From: an uncultured Eubacteriales bacterium
Lineage (GTDB): Bacteria > Bacillota > Clostridia > TANB77 > RGIG9151
NCBI GenBank assembly: GCA_964475435.1
Contig: CAYYWT010000005.1
Coordinates: 1-26,470 of the forward strand
DNA: 26,470 bases
Direction: 5' to 3'
A program made the position numbers and the translations under genes. Shown one piece after another: positions 950-26,470 of this stretch. The notes under the pieces are model-generated. The model searched no databases, was not told where the DNA came from, and worked only from the letters and a program-made list of their open reading frames with translations. Within the stretch, counting starts at the first letter, position 1. Every line of letters starts with the position of its first letter.

Positions 950-2071
<1,122 letters not shown>

Positions 2072-3118
2072 CTAAATAATAAGCATTGCATCGCCAAAGC
2101 TAAAAAATCTATATTTTTCATCTACAGCAATTTTATAAGCATTCATAATATAATCATATCCGGCTAATGCAGATACTAACATAATCAAAGTAGACTCCGG
2201 TAAATGGAAATTCGTAATAAGTCCATCTAAAACCTTAAAGTCATACCCTGGATAGATAAAAATATCCGTATTGCCTGTCATCGGTACTAAATCTTCTCCT
2301 TTTTTAGACACGCTCTCTAAAACCCTACAAGACGTAGTACCTACCGCAATAATTCTTCCGCCATTTTTCTTAGCTTTATTTATCTTTTCACAAGCCTCCT
2401 CGTTAATTTCATACCATTCAGAATGCATTTTATGTGCTAAAATATTATCTTCTTTTACAGGTCTAAAAGTTCCAAGTCCAACATGTAACGTAACTTCAGC
2501 TATACTTATCCCTTTTTCTTCAATCGCTTTTAATAAATCTTTAGTAAAATGCAATCCTGCAGTAGGAGCAGCAGACGAACCCTTAAATTTCGAATAAACC
2601 GTTTGATAACGTTCTTTATCCTTTAACTTATTATGAATATATGGTGGTAAAGGCACTCCCCCTACTCTATCTAATACTTCTTGAAAAATCCCATCATAAA
2701 ATAACTTTATTATCCTATTTCCGTCATCCTTTACTTCTAATACTTCAGCTCTAAGCTCCTCCATCTCGCCAAAAACGAATTTAGTACCCGGAATAGCACG
2801 CTTCCCGGGTTTAGCTAAAGCCTCCCAACAGTCATTTCCTAAATCCTTTAGCAAAAACAATTCTATTTTACCTTCAGTTTCTTCTTTTTTACCAATAAGA
2901 CGTGCAGGAATAACCCTAGTATTATTAATAACTAAACAATCTCCGGGATTAAGATAGTCTATAACATCCTTAAAAGTCTTATGAACAATCTCTCCATTAG
3001 TTTTATTTAATACAAGTAATCTAGACTCATCTCTCTTTTCTAACGGATCTTGGGCTATAAGCTCCTCCGGCAAATCATAAAAATATGTACTCTTCTTTAA
3101 TAACGCTTCTTTATCCAT
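2072..3118 (-). CDS. queA: S-adenosylmethionine:tRNA ribosyltransferase-isomerase
   Basis: 348-aa ORF. N-terminus [26 protein letters not shown], plus TAGLHFT and [11 protein letters not shown], are typical QueA. Conserved queA-tgt pairing. Confidence 0.95.
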
Positions 3119-6687: not shown

Positions 6688-6759
6688 ATTGTAACATTCT
6701 TTTAATATTTATTTTTGTTAGCATTTCAAAGGAAAAAAGAGAAAAAAACGAATATATTT
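6688..6759 (+). repeat. Intergenic repeat copy A (partner at 9373-9442)
   Basis: aattgtaa...tatttatttttgttagcatttcaaaggaaaaaagagaaaaaa..cgaatatattt. The 42-nt core differs from copy B at one position, and there are two indels. It lies 55-125 nt upstream of the amidase start on the minus strand. Confidence 0.8.
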
Positions 6760-9372: not shown

Positions 9373-9442
9373 AATTGTAATATTTATTTTTGTTAGCATT
9401 TTAAAGGAAAAAAGAGAAAAAATGAAAAAAGCGAATATATTT
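9373..9442 (+). repeat. Intergenic repeat copy B (partner at 6688-6759)
   Basis: Same orientation as copy A. Lies ~100-170 nt upstream of the Nudix-fusion start (minus strand) and ~90 nt upstream of the plus-strand CBM25-like gene. Confidence 0.8.
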
Positions 9443-14692: not shown

Positions 14693-14938
14693 TTCGAAAG
14701 GAGCTGTAAAAATCCTCATTTATCATTTAAATAACGTATTGTACTGTACCAAGCGAAACAAAAATTGCTTTTTTGTCCCTCTATGTAAATCGCATTTTAA
14801 AGTTGCCCAGGATGTGAGCGTAAGCTCCGTTCCGTACTTTAAATTTACTCTACACTTCCCACAAAAATATTTTTGGTAAGCGAGGTACAGTACAATATAT
14901 TATGAATTTTATGAATATTTTTACAGCCCCTTTCGTAA
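14693..14938. repeat. MITE-like palindromic element (~245 bp, ~80-nt imperfect inverted arms)
   Basis: Left arm is ttcgaaaggagctgtaaaaat...attgtactgtacc..gc..caaaaat. The reverse complement of the right arm is ttacgaaaggggctgtaaaaat...attgtactgtacc..gc..caaaaat. No ORF inside. A solo right arm recurs at 23581-23670. Confidence 0.75.
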
Positions 14939-19222: not shown

Positions 19223-19237
19223 TATTAACGCTTTGTC
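19211..19237. terminator. Hairpin shared by the convergent 3' ends of rqcH and the surface-protein gene
   Basis: gacaaagcgt (19211-19220) pairs with acgctttgtc (19228-19237), loop gatatta. Both stop codons fall within or next to the loop. A T-rich tract follows on the plus strand. Confidence 0.6.
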
Positions 19238-22029
19238 ATTTTATTCACAGCCAGTCCAACGCCTGCTATTGCTAAAAGTCCAACAGAAACTGCGGCAACT
19301 GGAAGAGCATTTCCTTTACTTGAACTATTGCCACCCCCATTATTTCCTGAAGAATTGCCGGACCCTCCGCCACTCGAACCACCGTATGAGCCTCCACTTG
19401 TTGAAGTAGAATCCAGTTCATAAACATAAATACCTCTTTTTAATTCTCTTTCTATTTCATCTACTAAATCTTCATTCTCATACTTTGCCGTTGCTGTAAT
19501 AATTAATTGTGCAACTTCATTACCGGAAGTTGATACACCCGTAACCTGTCCTTTTATATATCCTTTTGAATCAGGCGTAGACGCTCCGCTTGCCGTTATT
19601 CCTCCGCTACTTTCCCAAGTAACCTGTATATCTTCATATTTTACAAGATTTTTACTATTATAGTAATCTTGTACTTCTTGACGATCAGATTTTCCATATC
19701 CATATAAAGATTTACAATAAATAGTAATATCCTTTGTTTCCCCTACCTTAATCGAATTAAACACATCAGATGTAAATCTTAAAACAAATTGCGCTCTCTC
19801 CGGAGCTTCTTTTATTAATTCTATCGTTTCTAATCTTTTTTCGCCAAAATTATTTTCAACAGTTACATCCATTTCGGTTCTTGTAGGCTGCATATATCCA
19901 TCTTTTAATTCAACAGTTATTATTCTTTCATCGTCACGTTTTTCAAATTTAATGTCAAAAGCTTCTCTTGCATACTCATCTTTTACATCCCATTTTAATG
20001 TAATACAATTATTATCTTTTCTTCCGTCAGTCCATTTTAAATTATTATCATAAACAGAGCCATATTGTATTGCTAAATCTTTTTCAACTCCGGTTATAAT
20101 TACATCTATTTCAGTTGTTTCATCCTTTACAACAAAAAACTGAGATTGTAAAATATCAATTCCAAAGTCTCTAGAATGTATTTTTTGCGGTTCTGTTTGT
20201 CCACTGCCTTTTTCATAATAACAAATTATACACATATCAACATCTTTATCATCATTATGTTTATATCTATGCTCAGCCTTCGTTCCCGCAATACCTTTTG
20301 TATAATATTCACATTCGGTGTAATAACATCTTTTTAGATGTCCCGATTCAGGATTTTCCGGATCCGGGAAATATTCCCCGTAACTACATACGTGTCTTCT
20401 ATTCACAACCGCTCCGCTATTTCCATCAACCGGTGCCTCAGGCGAATGACTTGGCCCTTCTATGTTTGTACTTCCACTTGAACTTGGAGTAGGGCTTGGT
20501 GTTACACCCGGACTTGTACCTCCACTTGTGCTTGGACTTGATGTTCCTCCAGAGCTTGTACTTCCACTCGTGCTTGGACTTGATGTTCCTCCAGAGCTTG
20601 TACTTCCACTCGTGCTTGGACTTGATGTTCCTCCAGAGTTTGTACTTCCACTCGTGTTTGGACTTGATGTTCCTCCATTTGTATTTGTCCCCTCACTTGG
20701 GCTTGTACTTATACTTGGACTCAGAGTTTGCTCCGGTACACTAATATAAATTATAATTTTTATAACTTTCTTTATTCTATATAGTTCTTTTTGAATATCA
20801 ATTTCTTCGTATTGTATTTTTTTATCGAATTCATTAAGTTCTGTTTCTGAATATGTTTTTTCTTTGTTGTCAATTTTTTGTTTTAAATATTCCAATTCTT
20901 CTTTGCTATATTTAACAATATTCTTTTTCAGCGATTCTTCAATCTTATCTTTTATACACTCTAATTTATTATTAAGCCATATATTCACTTCTACCGGATC
21001 TTCTGATGCATTTATCGCTTTAAATAAAATTTTATTTTCTGATCCCTTCTTTATATTAACTTTTAATATATCTTTATCCCATCTAAAAGCACTGAAATCT
21101 ACGTATTCATTTATATTTATTGTCTTATTCTTTTCCTTATAAGTAACATTAATCTCTCCTTCAGCTTGCTCATTAACTTCTAAAGTATACTCCGTTGGTT
21201 TTACTTCAAAGCTTAAGTCACCACCAACAACTACACAACTTGCTTCATATTCGCCATATGTAACAGAAACAACCGCTATACCTTCTCTAAGCGTTTCTAT
21301 ATTTCCATCATTGTCAATCTTTACAACATTCGGCATACTGGATTTCCATTTATATCCCTCTTTGCTTTCAGGAATTTCTATACCTTCAGGAATAAACTTA
21401 GCTACAAGAGTATCTTTATCACCAACTTTATATTCCGCATATTCATATTCATTAATTTGTAATTTAGCAACATATAGTTTGTTACAAAGTTCATATTCGC
21501 AATATCCATTATTGCTACTTCCACCATAATGTTTCTGGCTTTCAAATCTATACGGACAATCAGTTAAAACACACCTATACCAATGATATGTCAAATCAGA
21601 TTCAACATAAATCGTCTCTAAATGTTCCTCTTTTTCATAAACAAAATCACAATCTTTATACGAACATTTATACCAATGATATGTATCATCAGTTTTTATA
21701 TTTTCAACATCTAAGCCGTGAGTTTGATATATCGCTCCACACACACTACATTTTCCGTTATTTTCGTGATTTCCACCAATATGACTATCATTATATTCAT
21801 ATAAACAACCGGCAACATCACACTTAAAAATATGATTTTCACCTAAATCATCATATGTCCATTTTCCGGATGGGTTATGAACTTCCTTCAAACCACACTT
21901 TGTACACTTCGTGTTATGTACTCCATACTGTAAATCTTCTATTTCAAAAGTATGTTGACATTCAGCAAAAGAAATATTCAGTGTTATAAAAACAAAAAAT
22001 ATAAAACTAAAAAATAATCCTTTTTTCAC
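19225..22029 (-). CDS. Large modular cell-surface protein (signal peptide, Cys/His-rich modules, Big_2/Ig-like domains, S/T/G/P tandem-repeat linker, C-terminal TM anchor)
   Basis: 934-aa ORF. Signal peptide MKKGLFFSFIFFVFITLNISFA. Repeated H-x3-C-x2-4-C-x5-13-H units in residues ~23-185 and again at ~545-600. Big_2-like segment KWKSSMPNVVKIDNDGNIETLREGIAVVSVTY. GGTSSPSTSGSTSS repeats. Gly/Ser-rich stalk, then LPVAAVSVGLLAIAGVGLAVNKMTKR at the C-terminus. Confidence 0.8.
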   Translation of the reverse strand: MKKGLFFSFIFFVFITLNISFAECQHTFEIEDLQYGVHNTKCTKCGLKEVHNPSGKWTYDDLGENHIFKCDVAGCLYEYNDSHIGGNHENNGKCSVCGAIYQTHGLDVENIKTDDTYHWYKCSYKDCDFVYEKEEHLETIYVESDLTYHWYRCVLTDCPYRFESQKHYGGSSNNGYCEYELCNKLYVAKLQINEYEYAEYKVGDKDTLVAKFIPEGIEIPESKEGYKWKSSMPNVVKIDNDGNIETLREGIAVVSVTYGEYEASCVVVGGDLSFEVKPTEYTLEVNEQAEGEINVTYKEKNKTININEYVDFSAFRWDKDILKVNIKKGSENKILFKAINASEDPVEVNIWLNNKLECIKDKIEESLKKNIVKYSKEELEYLKQKIDNKEKTYSETELNEFDKKIQYEEIDIQKELYRIKKVIKIIIYISVPEQTLSPSISTSPSEGTNTNGGTSSPNTSGSTNSGGTSSPSTSGSTSSGGTSSPSTSGSTSSGGTSSPSTSGGTSPGVTPSPTPSSSGSTNIEGPSHSPEAPVDGNSGAVVNRRHVCSYGEYFPDPENPESGHLKRCYYTECEYYTKGIAGTKAEHRYKHNDDKDVDMCIICYYEKGSGQTEPQKIHSRDFGIDILQSQFFVVKDETTEIDVIITGVEKDLAIQYGSVYDNNLKWTDGRKDNNCITLKWDVKDEYAREAFDIKFEKRDDERIITVELKDGYMQPTRTEMDVTVENNFGEKRLETIELIKEAPERAQFVLRFTSDVFNSIKVGETKDITIYCKSLYGYGKSDRQEVQDYYNSKNLVKYEDIQVTWESSGGITASGASTPDSKGYIKGQVTGVSTSGNEVAQLIITATAKYENEDLVDEIERELKRGIYVYELDSTSTSGGSYGGSSGGGSGNSSGNNGGGNSSSKGNALPVAAVSVGLLAIAGVGLAVNKMTKR
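20513..20680 (-). repeat. In-frame 42-bp tandem repeat, 4 units (encodes GGTSSPSTSGSTSS)
   Basis: Units start at 20513, 20555, 20597 and 20639. Units 2 and 3 are identical and the outer units are degenerate. More degenerate copies flank the array. Confidence 0.9.
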
Positions 22030-23580: not shown

Positions 23581-23670
23581 AAATTGACTCTACACTTCCC
23601 ACAAAAAATATTTTTGGTAAGCGAGGTACAGTACAATACATTATGAATTTTATGATTTTTTTACAGCCCC
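23581..23670 (+). repeat. Solo copy of the right arm of the 14693-14938 element
   Basis: aaattgactctacacttcccacaaaaaatatttttggtaagcgaggtacagtacaatacattatgaattttatgatttttttacagcccc is near-identical to 14841-14930, with a few substitutions and indels. Same orientation. Confidence 0.85.
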
Positions 23671-23692
23671 AAACAATTAATCTAAATAGTAA

Positions 23693-24772
23693 CTATCTTT
23701 TTGTTCCAACAGCTACTACTAAATCTTGGATTTCTCCATCTCTTAAAATTTTTACTCTCATCTTTTCATCAATCTCTTTAGAAAACAAAATTGTTCTCAT
23801 TTTACACAACGTATCTAATTCTAAATCATCAATAGAAAGTATTATATCGCCTTTTTTTATTCCGGATTTATATGCCGGACTTCCGTTTTCAACATCATAT
23901 ACATATATACCTGTATCAATTATTACTTTTGATGCAAAACTTGAAGTAATGGCTCTATCATATCCTAAAACGCCAAAATAAGGTTCCTTAAATTCTCCGG
24001 TTTCCTTAAATTTTTCTATTATAGGTTTTATCTGATTAACAGGAATAGCAAATCCAATCCCTTCTGCGCTTGCAACCTTTACAGTATTAATCCCAATAAC
24101 TTCCCCTTTACCATTCATAAGTGGTCCACCACTATTTCCACTATTAATACTCGCATCAGTTTGAATTAAATCTTCCATATAATTTCCTTCTACCTCTATA
24201 CTTCTGTTAAGTCCGCTTATAACTCCCGAAGTTAAAGTACCTTGAAATTCAAAACCTAACGGATTTCCAATAGCTATTGCTTTCTCTCCTATTCTAAGAC
24301 TATCCGAATCCCCCATAATAGCAGAAGGAAGACCCGCAACATCAATTTTTATAACTGCCAAATCCATATTCTTATTAGACCAAACAGCTCTTCCCTTTAT
24401 AACTTCTCCGCCATATAAAGTAACATATATTTCATCTTTTACATTCCCTATGACATGATAATTTGTAACTATATAACCTTTAGAATCCAGGATACATCCA
24501 CTTCCCACGCTCCAACTATTATCAAGTGTTGTCGCAAGTTTGTTTCCTGAATTTTGTTTAACCGCAATTCCTACAACAGAACTTGTTGAAACAACTGAAT
24601 TACTTTCCTCATTGACAAATTCTATATTTTTAACCTTATCACTTTCGTATGAAATATATTCTAAATTTTCCGTATTATTTTTCTTATCGCTAACTATGTT
24701 ATCTAGTCCTACTAAAGCAAAAACAATAACTAAAACAGAAGTTATACCCGAAACTAAAATAGATTTAAACAT
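23693..24772 (-). CDS. htrA: HtrA/DegP-family serine protease with PDZ domain
   Basis: 359-aa ORF. N-terminal TM helix. Trypsin-like domain with TNYHV (His), DLAVIKI (Asp) and GNSGGPL (Ser). C-terminal PDZ (GSPAYKSGIKKGDIILSID). Confidence 0.9.
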   Translation of the reverse strand: MFKSILVSGITSVLVIVFALVGLDNIVSDKKNNTENLEYISYESDKVKNIEFVNEESNSVVSTSSVVGIAVKQNSGNKLATTLDNSWSVGSGCILDSKGYIVTNYHVIGNVKDEIYVTLYGGEVIKGRAVWSNKNMDLAVIKIDVAGLPSAIMGDSDSLRIGEKAIAIGNPLGFEFQGTLTSGVISGLNRSIEVEGNYMEDLIQTDASINSGNSGGPLMNGKGEVIGINTVKVASAEGIGFAIPVNQIKPIIEKFKETGEFKEPYFGVLGYDRAITSSFASKVIIDTGIYVYDVENGSPAYKSGIKKGDIILSIDDLELDTLCKMRTILFSKEIDEKMRVKILRDGEIQDLVVAVGTKR

Positions 24773-24870
24773 ATTTTCATCATTCCTTTTGTTTTTATTA
24801 TTTTAGTATGGCTTTTTTAGTCAAAATAATGTATAATAATTCTAGCATTTTTCGAAAGGCGTTGATAACT

Positions 24871-24966
24871 ATGAATATAAATACTTTAAAGAAAGTACTA
24901 CTTTATTTAGCTTATTTTGCATTATTCTATTTTGCGATAAAATTACTTCTTTCATTATTCATTTAA
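24871..24966 (+). CDS. Possible 31-aa hydrophobic small protein (MNINTLKKVLLYLAYFALFYFAIKLLLSLFI)
   Basis: Not in the ORF track because it is too short. TATAAT at 24832-24837, GAAAGG ~10 nt before the ATG, one predicted TM helix, and a strong terminator 7 nt after the stop. Confidence 0.35.
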   Translation: MNINTLKKVLLYLAYFALFYFAIKLLLSLFI

Positions 24967-24972
24967 AACCTT

Positions 24973-24997
24973 AAAACACAGGTGTATCCTGTGTTTT
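24973..24997. terminator. Bidirectional terminator between the small ORF and the Cys-rich gene
   Basis: aaaacacagg (24973-24982) pairs with cctgtgtttt (24988-24997), loop tgtat. T-rich on both strands. Confidence 0.8.
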
Positions 24998-25000
24998 GTT

Positions 25001-25261
25001 TTACCAACTATATCTTGCATACCTGTCTACATAAGTACATCGACAGCATCTTGTCATATCTCTAATTGCCCAAAATAACAAAGGAGAAATAAAATCATTG
25101 CATCCGCAACAATTATTTTGACAACATAGTCCAAAATTAGGACCGCAACAATTATTAAATCCACACATTCTCCCACAATTACAGCAATTCCTACGACAAC
25201 AAAAATTATTATAACCGCAATTACAATTTCTATTACAACAACCACATCTATTACAACCCAT
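25001..25261 (-). CDS. 86-aa extremely cysteine-rich protein (22 Cys)
   Basis: Start moved to the internal ATG (residue 21 of the 106-aa track ORF), which is preceded by AAGGGGTG plus 5 nt. Sequence: MGCNRCGCCNRNCNCGYNNFCCRRNCCNCGRMCGFNNCCGPNFGLCCQNNCCGCNDFISPLLFWAIRDMTRCCRCTYVDRYARYSW. No family recognised. Confidence 0.6.
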   Translation of the reverse strand: MGCNRCGCCNRNCNCGYNNFCCRRNCCNCGRMCGFNNCCGPNFGLCCQNNCCGCNDFISPLLFWAIRDMTRCCRCTYVDRYARYSW

Positions 25262-25298
25262 TTTTTCACCCCTTATACAGTTTATGAAATAAGGCAAT

Positions 25299-25330
25299 AA
25301 AAAAGATACACCCGCAAACACGGATGTATC
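25299..25330 (-). terminator. Intrinsic terminator downstream of the FGE-like gene
   Basis: Minus strand reads ggatacatccg-tgtttg-cgggtgtatc followed by TTTTTT. 10-bp stem with one mismatch. Confidence 0.65.
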
Positions 25331-25349
25331 CTTAACTTTAAACCATTTT

Positions 25350-25378
25350 CCGGGGAAGATACAATGTATCTTCCCCGG
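25350..25378. other. Perfect 13-bp hairpin
   Basis: ccggggaagatac-aat-gtatcttccccgg. A T-tract (ttttagcttctttttt) follows only on the plus strand. Confidence 0.7.
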
Positions 25379-25471
25379 TTTTAGCTTCTTTTTTATTCTT
25401 TCAACTTTCTACTCCATAATTAGCTTACATAATTAAGCGATTTTGCGTTACCGCTCCAGGGACCAGATTCC

Positions 25472-25493
25472 TGTCGTGCGCTTGCGCACTACA
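25472..25493 (-). promoter_or_regulatory. GC-stem/4-nt-loop hairpin downstream of the putative variable region (DGR target-recognition-like)
   Basis: Minus strand reads tgtagtgcg-caag-cgcacgaca (5 GC-rich bp, one mismatch, 3 bp). It starts ~45 nt 3' of the stop codon, inside the GC-rich block. Confidence 0.45.
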
Positions 25494-25537
25494 AGTGAAA
25501 GCGTCCTTGCGGCAAAGCCGTTCAAAAAGAGCTTTCA

Positions 25538-25700
25538 CTACCGTATCGCGAGAACGGGACGGAAACCGCGGTTGTCGATAGAATTGCCGCCAGCGCTGAG
25601 GAAACAGAAGACCCCGGCGCCAGACGCAGAGCTGCAGCGACCACCGCGTAAGAAAACAGGGGTGCGGGAATACGGCGCGCTCGAGTAATCTCCATCCCAT
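25538..25700 (-). other. Putative DGR variable region (VR) at the 3' end of the target gene
   Basis: Roughly 60-65% G+C inside a ~30% G+C gene. About 9% A on the coding strand by hand count. Codons are mostly NNC. Encodes the RGG...AGVF...GFR end of an FGE/C-type-lectin fold. Confidence 0.55.
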
Positions 25701-26470
25701 GAGGCTGTACCTGAGTAACTGTTACTCGTCTCATACACTGCATCGCCTTTTATACCACTCCATGCCGCATAGTTATTAGCTTGACTATCACTTGTTCCTA
25801 CTGGATACACATCTACATATTTAGTTCCGTAGTTACTATACGAATTTACTAAGCTACTCACATAACTAGTTACATTCTCATTGTTTACATATGCAGATAC
25901 GTATTCATATGCTCCACCAGACAAGTCATATATTCCATATACATTATGCGTTGTACTTGCTTTAACTCCACCTGTTGTATTCCAAGCGTTTGTTACTCCG
26001 GAAGCACTACTTGCATCTTGAGTTCCTCCTGCGTTTCCGGTTATATAACTACTACTATTATTTATATACGGTATTCGTCCTATTGCGTTAGTTAAATACG
26101 CTACTGCTCCCCATTCTACGTTTTTCATTAAATGCGAGTCTAAGTCTCTATTTAAGTTATATGAGTAATCAAACATATCGCTTACAATCAAACTTCTCCA
26201 AGAAATTACTCCGGGTTTAGAACTTACAGTTGTTCCACTACCGGCACTAGATGCTGTTGCATCATTACGGCTTGCCTCAAATTTTGCTACCCATATGCCT
26301 TTTAAATCTGTTGTCCCAAGTGTAAATGCCGGATGAGAAATATAGCTATCCGTTGTATAGTCGCTTGTTCCGTTACTGAATTTTATTTCTATTTTTCCTG
26401 TTTTATTTTCTCCACTGTCTGCGTTCCATGAGTCTACATCTTGATGGTATCCGTTTTCTTCTGTAATTCT
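25538..26470 (-). CDS. FGE-sulfatase/C-type-lectin-fold protein, partial (N-terminus beyond the window edge); candidate DGR target
   Basis: The frame stays open from 26470 to the TAG at 25538-25540. The track start at 26191 is an internal TTG. FGE-family landmarks: NVEWGAVAYL, NVYGIYDLSGGAYEYV, FLRGG...NRGFRPV. Confidence 0.8.
   Translation of the reverse strand, partial: RITEENGYHQDVDSWNADSGENKTGKIEIKFSNGTSDYTTDSYISHPAFTLGTTDLKGIWVAKFEASRNDATASSAGSGTTVSSKPGVISWRSLIVSDMFDYSYNLNRDLDSHLMKNVEWGAVAYLTNAIGRIPYINNSSSYITGNAGGTQDASSASGVTNAWNTTGGVKASTTHNVYGIYDLSGGAYEYVSAYVNNENVTSYVSSLVNSYSNYGTKYVDVYPVGTSDSQANNYAAWSGIKGDAVYETSNSYSGTASWDGDYSSAPYSRTPVFLRGGRCSSASGAGVFCFLSAGGNSIDNRGFRPVLAIR

Follow-up and report, generated by a model that had tools for sequence, protein, structure and literature searches.

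A gene end in an uncultured spore-forming Firmicute as the probable variable region of a diversity-generating retroelement target, judged from the template repeats of relatives

The 3' end of a gene at the edge of a 26,470-nt stretch of DNA from an uncultured Eubacteriales bacterium (the whole of which is hereafter called the window) is very probably the variable region (VR) of a diversity-generating retroelement (DGR) target gene. DGRs are a familiar route to targeted hypermutation of proteins. This region, at 25539-25691 on the minus strand, aligns without gaps to the template repeats (TRs) of DGR cassettes in related bacteria, and differs from them mainly at template adenines. The target is most likely a non-adjacent one that is served in trans. 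We infer that its cognate TR and reverse transcriptase (RT) are located elsewhere in the genome and that homing has been recent or is ongoing, current diversification being a deduction since neither component was found in the collections searched. The features of the locus, all on the minus strand, are as follows:

25538..26470, minus strand: 3' part of the target gene, 310 codons plus stop, with the frame open to the TAG at 25538-25540
25539..25691, minus strand: stretch homologous to TRs, read as the VR, comprising codons 261-310 of the fragment and 2 bases of the stop
25538..25567, minus strand: 3'-terminal part of the VR, GGTTTCCGTCCCGTTCTCGCGATACGGTAG, A-free and G+C-rich, which hardly differs from the TR ends of loci L035 and L038
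25470..25538, minus strand: G+C-rich 69-nt insertion, a clean gap against the flank of locus L028, at the end of the TR homology
25449..25469, minus strand: conserved flank motif, AATCTGGTCCCTGGAGCGGTA, matched in L028 by AATCTGGTGCCTGGAGAGGTA right after the stop
25348..25382, minus strand: perfect 13-bp hairpin, AAAACCGGGGAAGATACATTGTATCTTCCCCGGAA, terminator-like on the plus strand
25302..25333, minus strand: intrinsic-terminator-like hairpin followed by a T run

Ungapped alignments were obtained from 25691 to 25539 with the TRs of L028 and L036, and from 25689 to 25539 (151 nt) with those of L035, L038 and L040-42. When the positions are sorted by the base that occurs in the L038 TR, the mismatches in the window are distributed as follows:

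TR base A: 33/49 mismatched
TR base C: 5/44 mismatched
TR base G: 2/25 mismatched
TR base T: 4/33 mismatched

The mismatch rate is 67 % at template adenines and 8-12 % at each of the other three bases. For the nearest TRs (L035 and L038), which are surrogates and not the cognate TR, this corresponds to 33/49 A against 11/102 non-A positions (Fisher p = 2.4e-12). At the adenine positions of the TR the window carries A in 16 cases, G in 17, C in 8 and T in 8. Nine of the eleven non-A mismatches are synonymous third-position changes, while the other two fall in two AGC codons where the TRs of other lineages differ too. The predominance of synonymous changes is what would be expected of a diverged cognate TR, rather than of random decay. 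The TRs of the L035/L038 group differ from one another at 0-6 positions and from those of the next clades at 22-30, and the window's own TR can thus be expected to be a sister of this group. As a control, TR regions (TR plus spacer) were compared between species and showed no A bias (p = 0.09-0.86). The DGR variable region proposed in a first-pass annotation of the window is therefore supported by ungapped TR homology, by mismatches placed at template adenines and by a largely synonymous residue of other changes; an absence of adenine bias among the mismatches, which that annotation had envisaged as the contrary outcome, is not seen against the TRs of relatives.

An abrupt switch in composition within an open reading frame could also arise where a block is recombined or horizontally acquired from a high-G+C homologue, with no retroelement involved. 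This is very improbable here, as the homologous TRs belong to low-G+C relatives (locus G+C 0.27-0.36) and the edges of the block coincide with the edges of the TR. Furthermore, a G+C-biased replacement would affect T too, and the sparing of T positions points to strand-specific adenine mutagenesis and not to AT-to-GC replacement by a high-G+C donor.

The composition of the region is extreme in the context of the whole window. The minus strand of 25541-25680 contains 13 A in 140 nt (9.3 %) and 27.1 % T, and among all 140-nt stretches of the 26,470-nt window it has both the highest G+C content (0.636; z = +5.8) and the lowest minus-strand A content (0.093; z = -4.4), with values elsewhere reaching only 0.514 for G+C and 0.150 for A. 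The adenine depletion reported in the first-pass annotation was thus reproduced with the same counts and represents the window-wide minimum, and a recount of its approximately 59 % G+C for 25441-25680 gave 58.8 % (141/240). Its description of a composition switch within an unbroken frame was likewise borne out, the frame being open down to the TAG, and the C-terminal peptide it quoted matches the translation. The backdrop of approximately 30 % G+C that it assumed holds for the window (30.7 %) and not for the remainder of the gene, where 37.8 % was measured outside the variable end. Similarly, its statement that the codons are overwhelmingly NNC was worded too strongly: NNC is enriched in the last 50 codons (52 %, against 14 % in the remainder of the gene), but NNT accounts for another 30 %. 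NNA codons constitute 4 % of the last 50 codons and 41 % of the remainder.

Residues whose codons are G+C-rich (Gly, Arg, Ala, Ser, Cys) abound in the peptide, and it could be argued that amino acid content, or chance, produced this composition. This explanation is scarcely credible for a stretch that is the most extreme of its length in 26.5 kb and in which the third positions themselves shift from 14 % to 52 % C and from 41 % to 4 % A. Homologues without a TR-type end (L002, L010, L011, L014, L017, L019 and L048) retain the same RGG...G[VI]F...FR.VL scaffold and encode it at a G+C content of 0.35-0.41 and a GC3 of 0.12-0.25, as compared to a G+C content of 0.62 and a GC3 of 0.63 in the window VR and a GC3 of 0.73 in the proven VR of L028. 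As the same scaffold is specified by AT-rich codons elsewhere, the composition marks TR-derived DNA and not the protein. The persistence of a GC3 of 0.63 in a genome of 31 % G+C furthermore argues for recent writing.

Variability within the protein family is concentrated at the same codons. This hypervariability was measured in family members, none of which is more than 67 % identical to the window target. In an alignment of 48 members, the entropy was 2.56 bits for VR codons with a TR adenine at position 1 or 2, 0.71 bits for the remaining VR codons and 1.12 bits for the protein outside the VR (Mann-Whitney p = 2e-8 and 2e-11 for the two contrasts). Among 18 orthologous homologues of 404 amino acids, identity is 98.9 % outside the last 52 residues and 74 % within them, and nearly all multi-allelic positions are located in residues 356-395.

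The target gene runs past the end of the window at 26470, and the N-terminus of its product lies beyond this point. A total of 1848 homologues were found at E <= 1e-20, although no protein in the collection is more than 67 % identical to the target. FGE-sulfatase motifs had been noted upstream of the variable end; the Pfam FGE-sulfatase model scores this fragment below its cut-off (E = 0.002; 18.3 bits against 23.3), while 39/48 family members match it, with a best E-value of 2.8e-6. When the family profile was compared with solved structures, the best match was 5VF4 (E = 0.0066), the Thermus aquaticus DGR variable protein TaqVP. Two AlphaFold runs (pLDDT 45 and 61.5, with the VR below 50) gave no usable model, and Foldseek comparison of these poor models against the PDB returned no significant match, with formylglycine-generating enzymes first in the ranking. 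The domain is thus likely, as judged from sequence, to belong to the FGE subtype of the C-type-lectin fold, although the weakness of these sequence matches counts against reading the gene as a DGR target. The gene product is probably a surface protein with the VR, which is located at the 3' end of the ORF and terminates at the stop codon, forming a C-terminal ligand-binding face.

The nearest homologues carry Flg_new (Listeria-Bacteroides) repeats, and in L004 and L005 such repeats come after the VR, which has an internal location and not one at the extreme C-terminus. More distant family members (~50 % identity; P0010, P0015, P0030, P0036-P0038 and others) have a pilin-like hydrophobic N-terminus (GITLIALVVTIVVLLILAG), and 8/48 family members show a weak match to Pfam N_methyl.

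The TR/VR homology in L028 and L047 stops at the stop codon. From its position at this boundary, the A-free 25538..25567 segment would be the equivalent of the IMH. The first-pass annotation had described a G+C-rich block of approximately 50 codons and 100 nt past the stop, and had placed the IMH and a hairpin in this tail. The codons fit this description, while the tail (52 % G+C over ~100 nt) is situated outside the TR-homologous repeat. Hairpins are indeed present in the tail, but the IMH-equivalent falls within the last ~30 nt of the ORF, and the G+C-rich DNA after the stop instead comprises the 69-nt insertion and the conserved flank motif.

Folding of this lineage-specific insertion gives a long hairpin (25494-25539) and a short one (GTGCG-CAAG-CGCAC; 25476-25489). 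Its DNA fold has an energy of -22 kcal/mol (z = -2.3), and the RNA fold of the entire 3' region has a z-score of -6.9. The possibility that it is a repeated mobile element was rejected, as it is unique in the window, among the 47 loci compared and in viral contigs, as was derivation from the spacer of the DGR RNA, for which a local alignment was no better than those of 22/300 shuffles. As the insertion parts the VR from the flank motif, it could impair recognition of the target, which counts against the DGR-target reading.

Beyond the insertion, the 3' flank of the window is homologous to that of L028 from AATCTGG onward (~70 % over ~130 nt), and L001 and L003 share the ATCTGG of the flank motif. 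In the relatives, the equivalent of this flank leads into the cassette. The 25348-25382 hairpin matches the opening bases of L038 in 35/35 positions and the starts of L040 and L042 in 30/30, and these three loci run from the hairpin into HRDC, TR, bAvd and RT genes. In the window the hairpin is followed by the 25302..25333 terminator, which likely marks the end of the target transcript, a Cys-rich ORF and htrA, with no cassette. Since the hairpin has been kept with other genes behind it, the window gene is either a paralogue with a cassette-proximal flank or one from which the cassette has moved away. A hairpin with no cassette behind it also weighs against the DGR-target reading, as this copy may have lost its cassette. 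The DNA downstream of the target stop is structured and non-coding up to the 86-aa ORF (25001-25261, minus strand), which contains 22 cysteines (MGCNRCGCCNRNCNCGYNNFCC...CCGCNDF...) and lies between the target gene and htrA. No Pfam model matches this ORF, and the gene calls for the strain's Logan contig leave it out; its product could be a small Cys-rich protein, spore-coat-like or otherwise, or it may not be a gene at all.

The other ORFs of the window constitute ordinary chromosome of a spore-forming Firmicute. These include tgt, queA, spoIIP, spo0A, spoIIR and prfA, a zinc-uptake set (ZnuA-, ZIP- and ABC-type), and genes for an acyl-CoA ligase, an NFACT protein and htrA. A repeat search of the window revealed no second copy of the VR, and a TR within the window was therefore rejected; no RT, Avd or HRDC gene occurs there either, which agrees with the earlier placement of the TR/RT cassette outside the window. 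Rfam comparison over the window gave nothing at the gathering score, and only sub-threshold noise around the VR.

Several other repeats are present in the window. Four tandem 42-nt units at 20471-20680 encode a Ser/Thr/Pro/Gly linker of the GGTSSPSTSGSTSS type within the minus-strand ORF 19225-22029, which specifies a 934-aa protein with a weak Big_2 match, and in G+C content (0.51) this spot ranks second within the window. A 59-nt intergenic repeat (AAAAATATTTTTGGTAAGCGAGGTACAGTACAATA...; 95 % identical) occurs at 14863-14921 and 23604-23662, with a third, inverted partial copy at 14718-14765 and no Rfam match, and may be a shared regulatory site. Two minus-strand genes, coding for an amidase and a NUDIX/dehydrogenase fusion, have upstream of them a 48-nt intergenic repeat (96 % identical; 6700-6747 and 9375-9422) that may represent a shared promoter.

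A scan of one genome per species identified 32 loci encoding target homologues, the best of which is 66 % identical. Their hosts are uncultured Clostridia, Bacilli and Mollicutes-like MAGs, and many of the loci are truncated at contig ends. Paralogues are common, often with several per MAG on separate contigs. In related gut MAGs and read assemblies, target homologues adjoin complete DGR cassettes, and TR/VR pairs were found by an all-against-all repeat screen of the loci. The cassette of L028 is arranged as follows:

236-391: VR, in the target gene
713-1306: HRDC/RQC gene
1333-1488: TR
1622-2008: bAvd
1989-3011: RT (RVT_1)

In the L028 TR/VR pair 23/24 mismatches fall at TR adenines, while in that of L047 mismatches occur at 18/39 A positions and at 0/105 of the others (p = 1.7e-12). 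The L028 TR also matches VRs of another MAG, again with mismatches mostly at A (15/19 in L004 and 28/34 in L001). As these VRs are located on the contigs of another MAG, targets off the cassette contig occur in this clade.

The RT homologues of the clade fall into a handful of 90 % clusters. Cassettes were fetched for eight RT proteins (P0122, P0123, P0124, P0125, P0126, P0128, P0241 and P0242), and all those with sufficient flank have the gene order HRDC, TR, bAvd, RT. The best fetched TRs retain at least eleven non-A mismatches to the window VR, and none is thus cognate to it. The spacer that separates TR from avd shows strong conservation throughout the clade (L028 1485-1625, L038 991-1210, L047 1367-1540 and L045 173-345), for example in TTATCGTATGA.C.ATATTCC and GTTAGTAG...CGAAAAAGG, and is presumably a structured part of the DGR RNA for priming. 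Two distinct DGR cassettes (L037 and L038) derive from a single sample, SRR33036523.

The left side of the cassette (hairpin, HRDC, TR and bAvd) is common to L038/L039 and to L040-L042 and L035, and the right side differs, with dtd, MBL, spoIID and murB in the former and two small ORFs, thyA and folA in the latter. The RTs in question are more than 90 % identical (P0241 and P0242, the right neighbours being thyA/folA or dtd/spoIID/murB). Either the cassette is mobile or the genomes have been rearranged at it.

The cognate TR, RT, Avd and HRDC were not found in any of the collections searched (JGI metagenomes, IMG/VR and the clade RT clusters), which stands against the DGR-target reading for this genome. 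An A-free 21-mer of the VR (GGTTTCCGTCCCGTTCTCGCG) was used as the scan query. It had no match in IMG/VR viral contigs, and its one match in JGI metagenomes, in an unrelated high-G+C contig, was taken as chance. No relatives of the nearest RT were found in viral contigs, and the absence of this RT clade from them fits a chromosomal DGR. An exact look-up of HtrA gave as sole match a 1.7-kb Logan contig from SRR10277277 that ends at ~25329. As the strain is represented in the collections by this one contig, failure to find the cassette is expected. The contig (L033) covers 23626-25329 and stops just 3' of the terminator hairpins of the target, while the cassette contigs of relatives begin exactly at the perfect palindrome CCGGGGAAGATACATTGTATCTTCCCCGG; these contig ends are probably assembly breaks at palindromes and not biology. 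A Logan homologue, P0003, was considered as a same-sample paralogue and rejected, as its source is a different sample and its end is AT-rich and not of the TR type.

These observations bear on whether the VR is still in use. It may be a relic that was written by a DGR in the past and is no longer diversified, because the cassette was lost (e.g. deleted at the conserved hairpin) or homing was disabled by the insertion. A flank homologous to the cassette-adjacent flank of L028, a hairpin that elsewhere forms the left edge of the L038/L040/L042 cassette contigs, an insertion exactly where the TR homology ends, and cognate components missing from the searched collections would all suit such a history. 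We nevertheless regard it as unlikely. A long-abandoned VR should have drifted towards AT, which does not accord with the GC3 of 0.63 and the A content of 9 % that persist against a genomic G+C of 31 %, and the synonymous nature of 9/11 non-A differences is a better fit to a diverged live TR than to decay. The frame and every scaffold residue are intact, and the missing cassette would be expected in any case for a strain known in the collections from 1.7 kb.

A still more doubtful interpretation is that the locus is the footprint of a DGR cassette that moved, with the target, the VR and the flank up to the hairpin being kept. The occurrence of RTs that are more than 90 % identical behind the same hairpin in at least two chromosomal contexts (thyA/folA and dtd/spoIID/murB) speaks for it. 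If this were the case, the HRDC-TR-Avd-RT unit would relocate as a whole at the hairpin, and the targets orphaned in this way would be served in trans. The unique double-hairpin insertion, placed exactly where the TR homology ends, might then be a side product of homing or a recognition element that has taken the place of another.

Under the preferred reading, of a DGR target that is served from elsewhere in the genome, and following what is established for DGRs, a TR with AAC or AAT codons at approximately 24 positions, judging by the relatives, would be transcribed. The DGR RT and bAvd, probably with the HRDC protein, would copy it into cDNA with misincorporation opposite the template adenines. 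This cDNA would then replace the VR, with the A-free, G+C-rich 3' terminus of the repeat and structure downstream of it as guides. The outcome would be G+C-rich, adenine-poor NNC/NNT codons that randomise ~24 residues on a fixed RGG...AGVF...GFRPVL scaffold.

The gene adds one more DGR target to a very large gut-microbiome set, in an uncultured spore-forming Firmicute lineage, and belongs with a cassette type (HRDC plus Avd) that makes up approximately 4 % of one curated DGR survey. For annotation purposes, it suggests that a VR can be recognised by its composition alone and corroborated by means of the TRs of relatives when the cassette is off the contig. Less ordinary are the flank, which is common to cassette-adjacent targets up to an identical hairpin, and the structured insertion at the homing boundary; these two points are relevant to the way targets and cassettes become separated, and to what a DGR requires beyond the end of a VR.

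Among known systems, TaqVP (5VF4) resembles the target in that the RGG...AG segment of the family profile is placed on TaqVP residues 348-378, within its VR (341-374), in a match that is marginal (E = 0.0066) and in which the VR segment alone does not score. The DGR of Bordetella phage BPP-1 (Mtd, TR, Avd and Brt) resembles the window in its adenine-specific TR-to-VR pattern, seen here against the TRs of relatives, in a VR at the 3' end of a gene for a C-type-lectin fold, which is likely for the window target, in a repeat whose end is A-free and G+C-rich, and in the inverted repeats that follow the VR (PMC3240598). It differs in being phage-borne, with a single adjacent target. Targets of the BPP-1 type need a G+C-rich hairpin with a 7-10 bp stem and a GRNA loop, ~4-34 bp past the VR (PMC3240598), whereas the short hairpin of the window has a 5-bp stem and a CAAG loop, and is found ~50 nt past the stop in an insertion that the relatives lack. 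The likeness of the window's hairpins to the BPP-1 element is thus a loose one.

The DGR of Treponema denticola, with TvpA and seven dispersed targets, offers further likenesses and differences. The window belongs to a spore-forming Firmicute of low G+C content from gut metagenomes, its target is known without its cassette, and the lipoprotein signal of the T. denticola targets is replaced among the window homologues by Flg_new repeats or a pilin-like N-terminal helix. The T. denticola DGR is chromosomal and not phage-associated, as is probable here. It includes an HRDC gene, where the cassettes of the window's relatives carry HRDC plus bAvd, and HRDC-containing DGRs form 'Architecture C' in the classification of Wu et al. 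2018 (PMC5758913). Both systems have targets with the VR at the C-terminus, of an FGE-type C-type-lectin fold that is likely in the window's case, and several paralogous targets per genome, which may lie far from the RT, occur in T. denticola as in the window's relatives; remote, non-adjacent targets of this kind are documented for chromosomal HRDC-type DGRs (PMC5758913).
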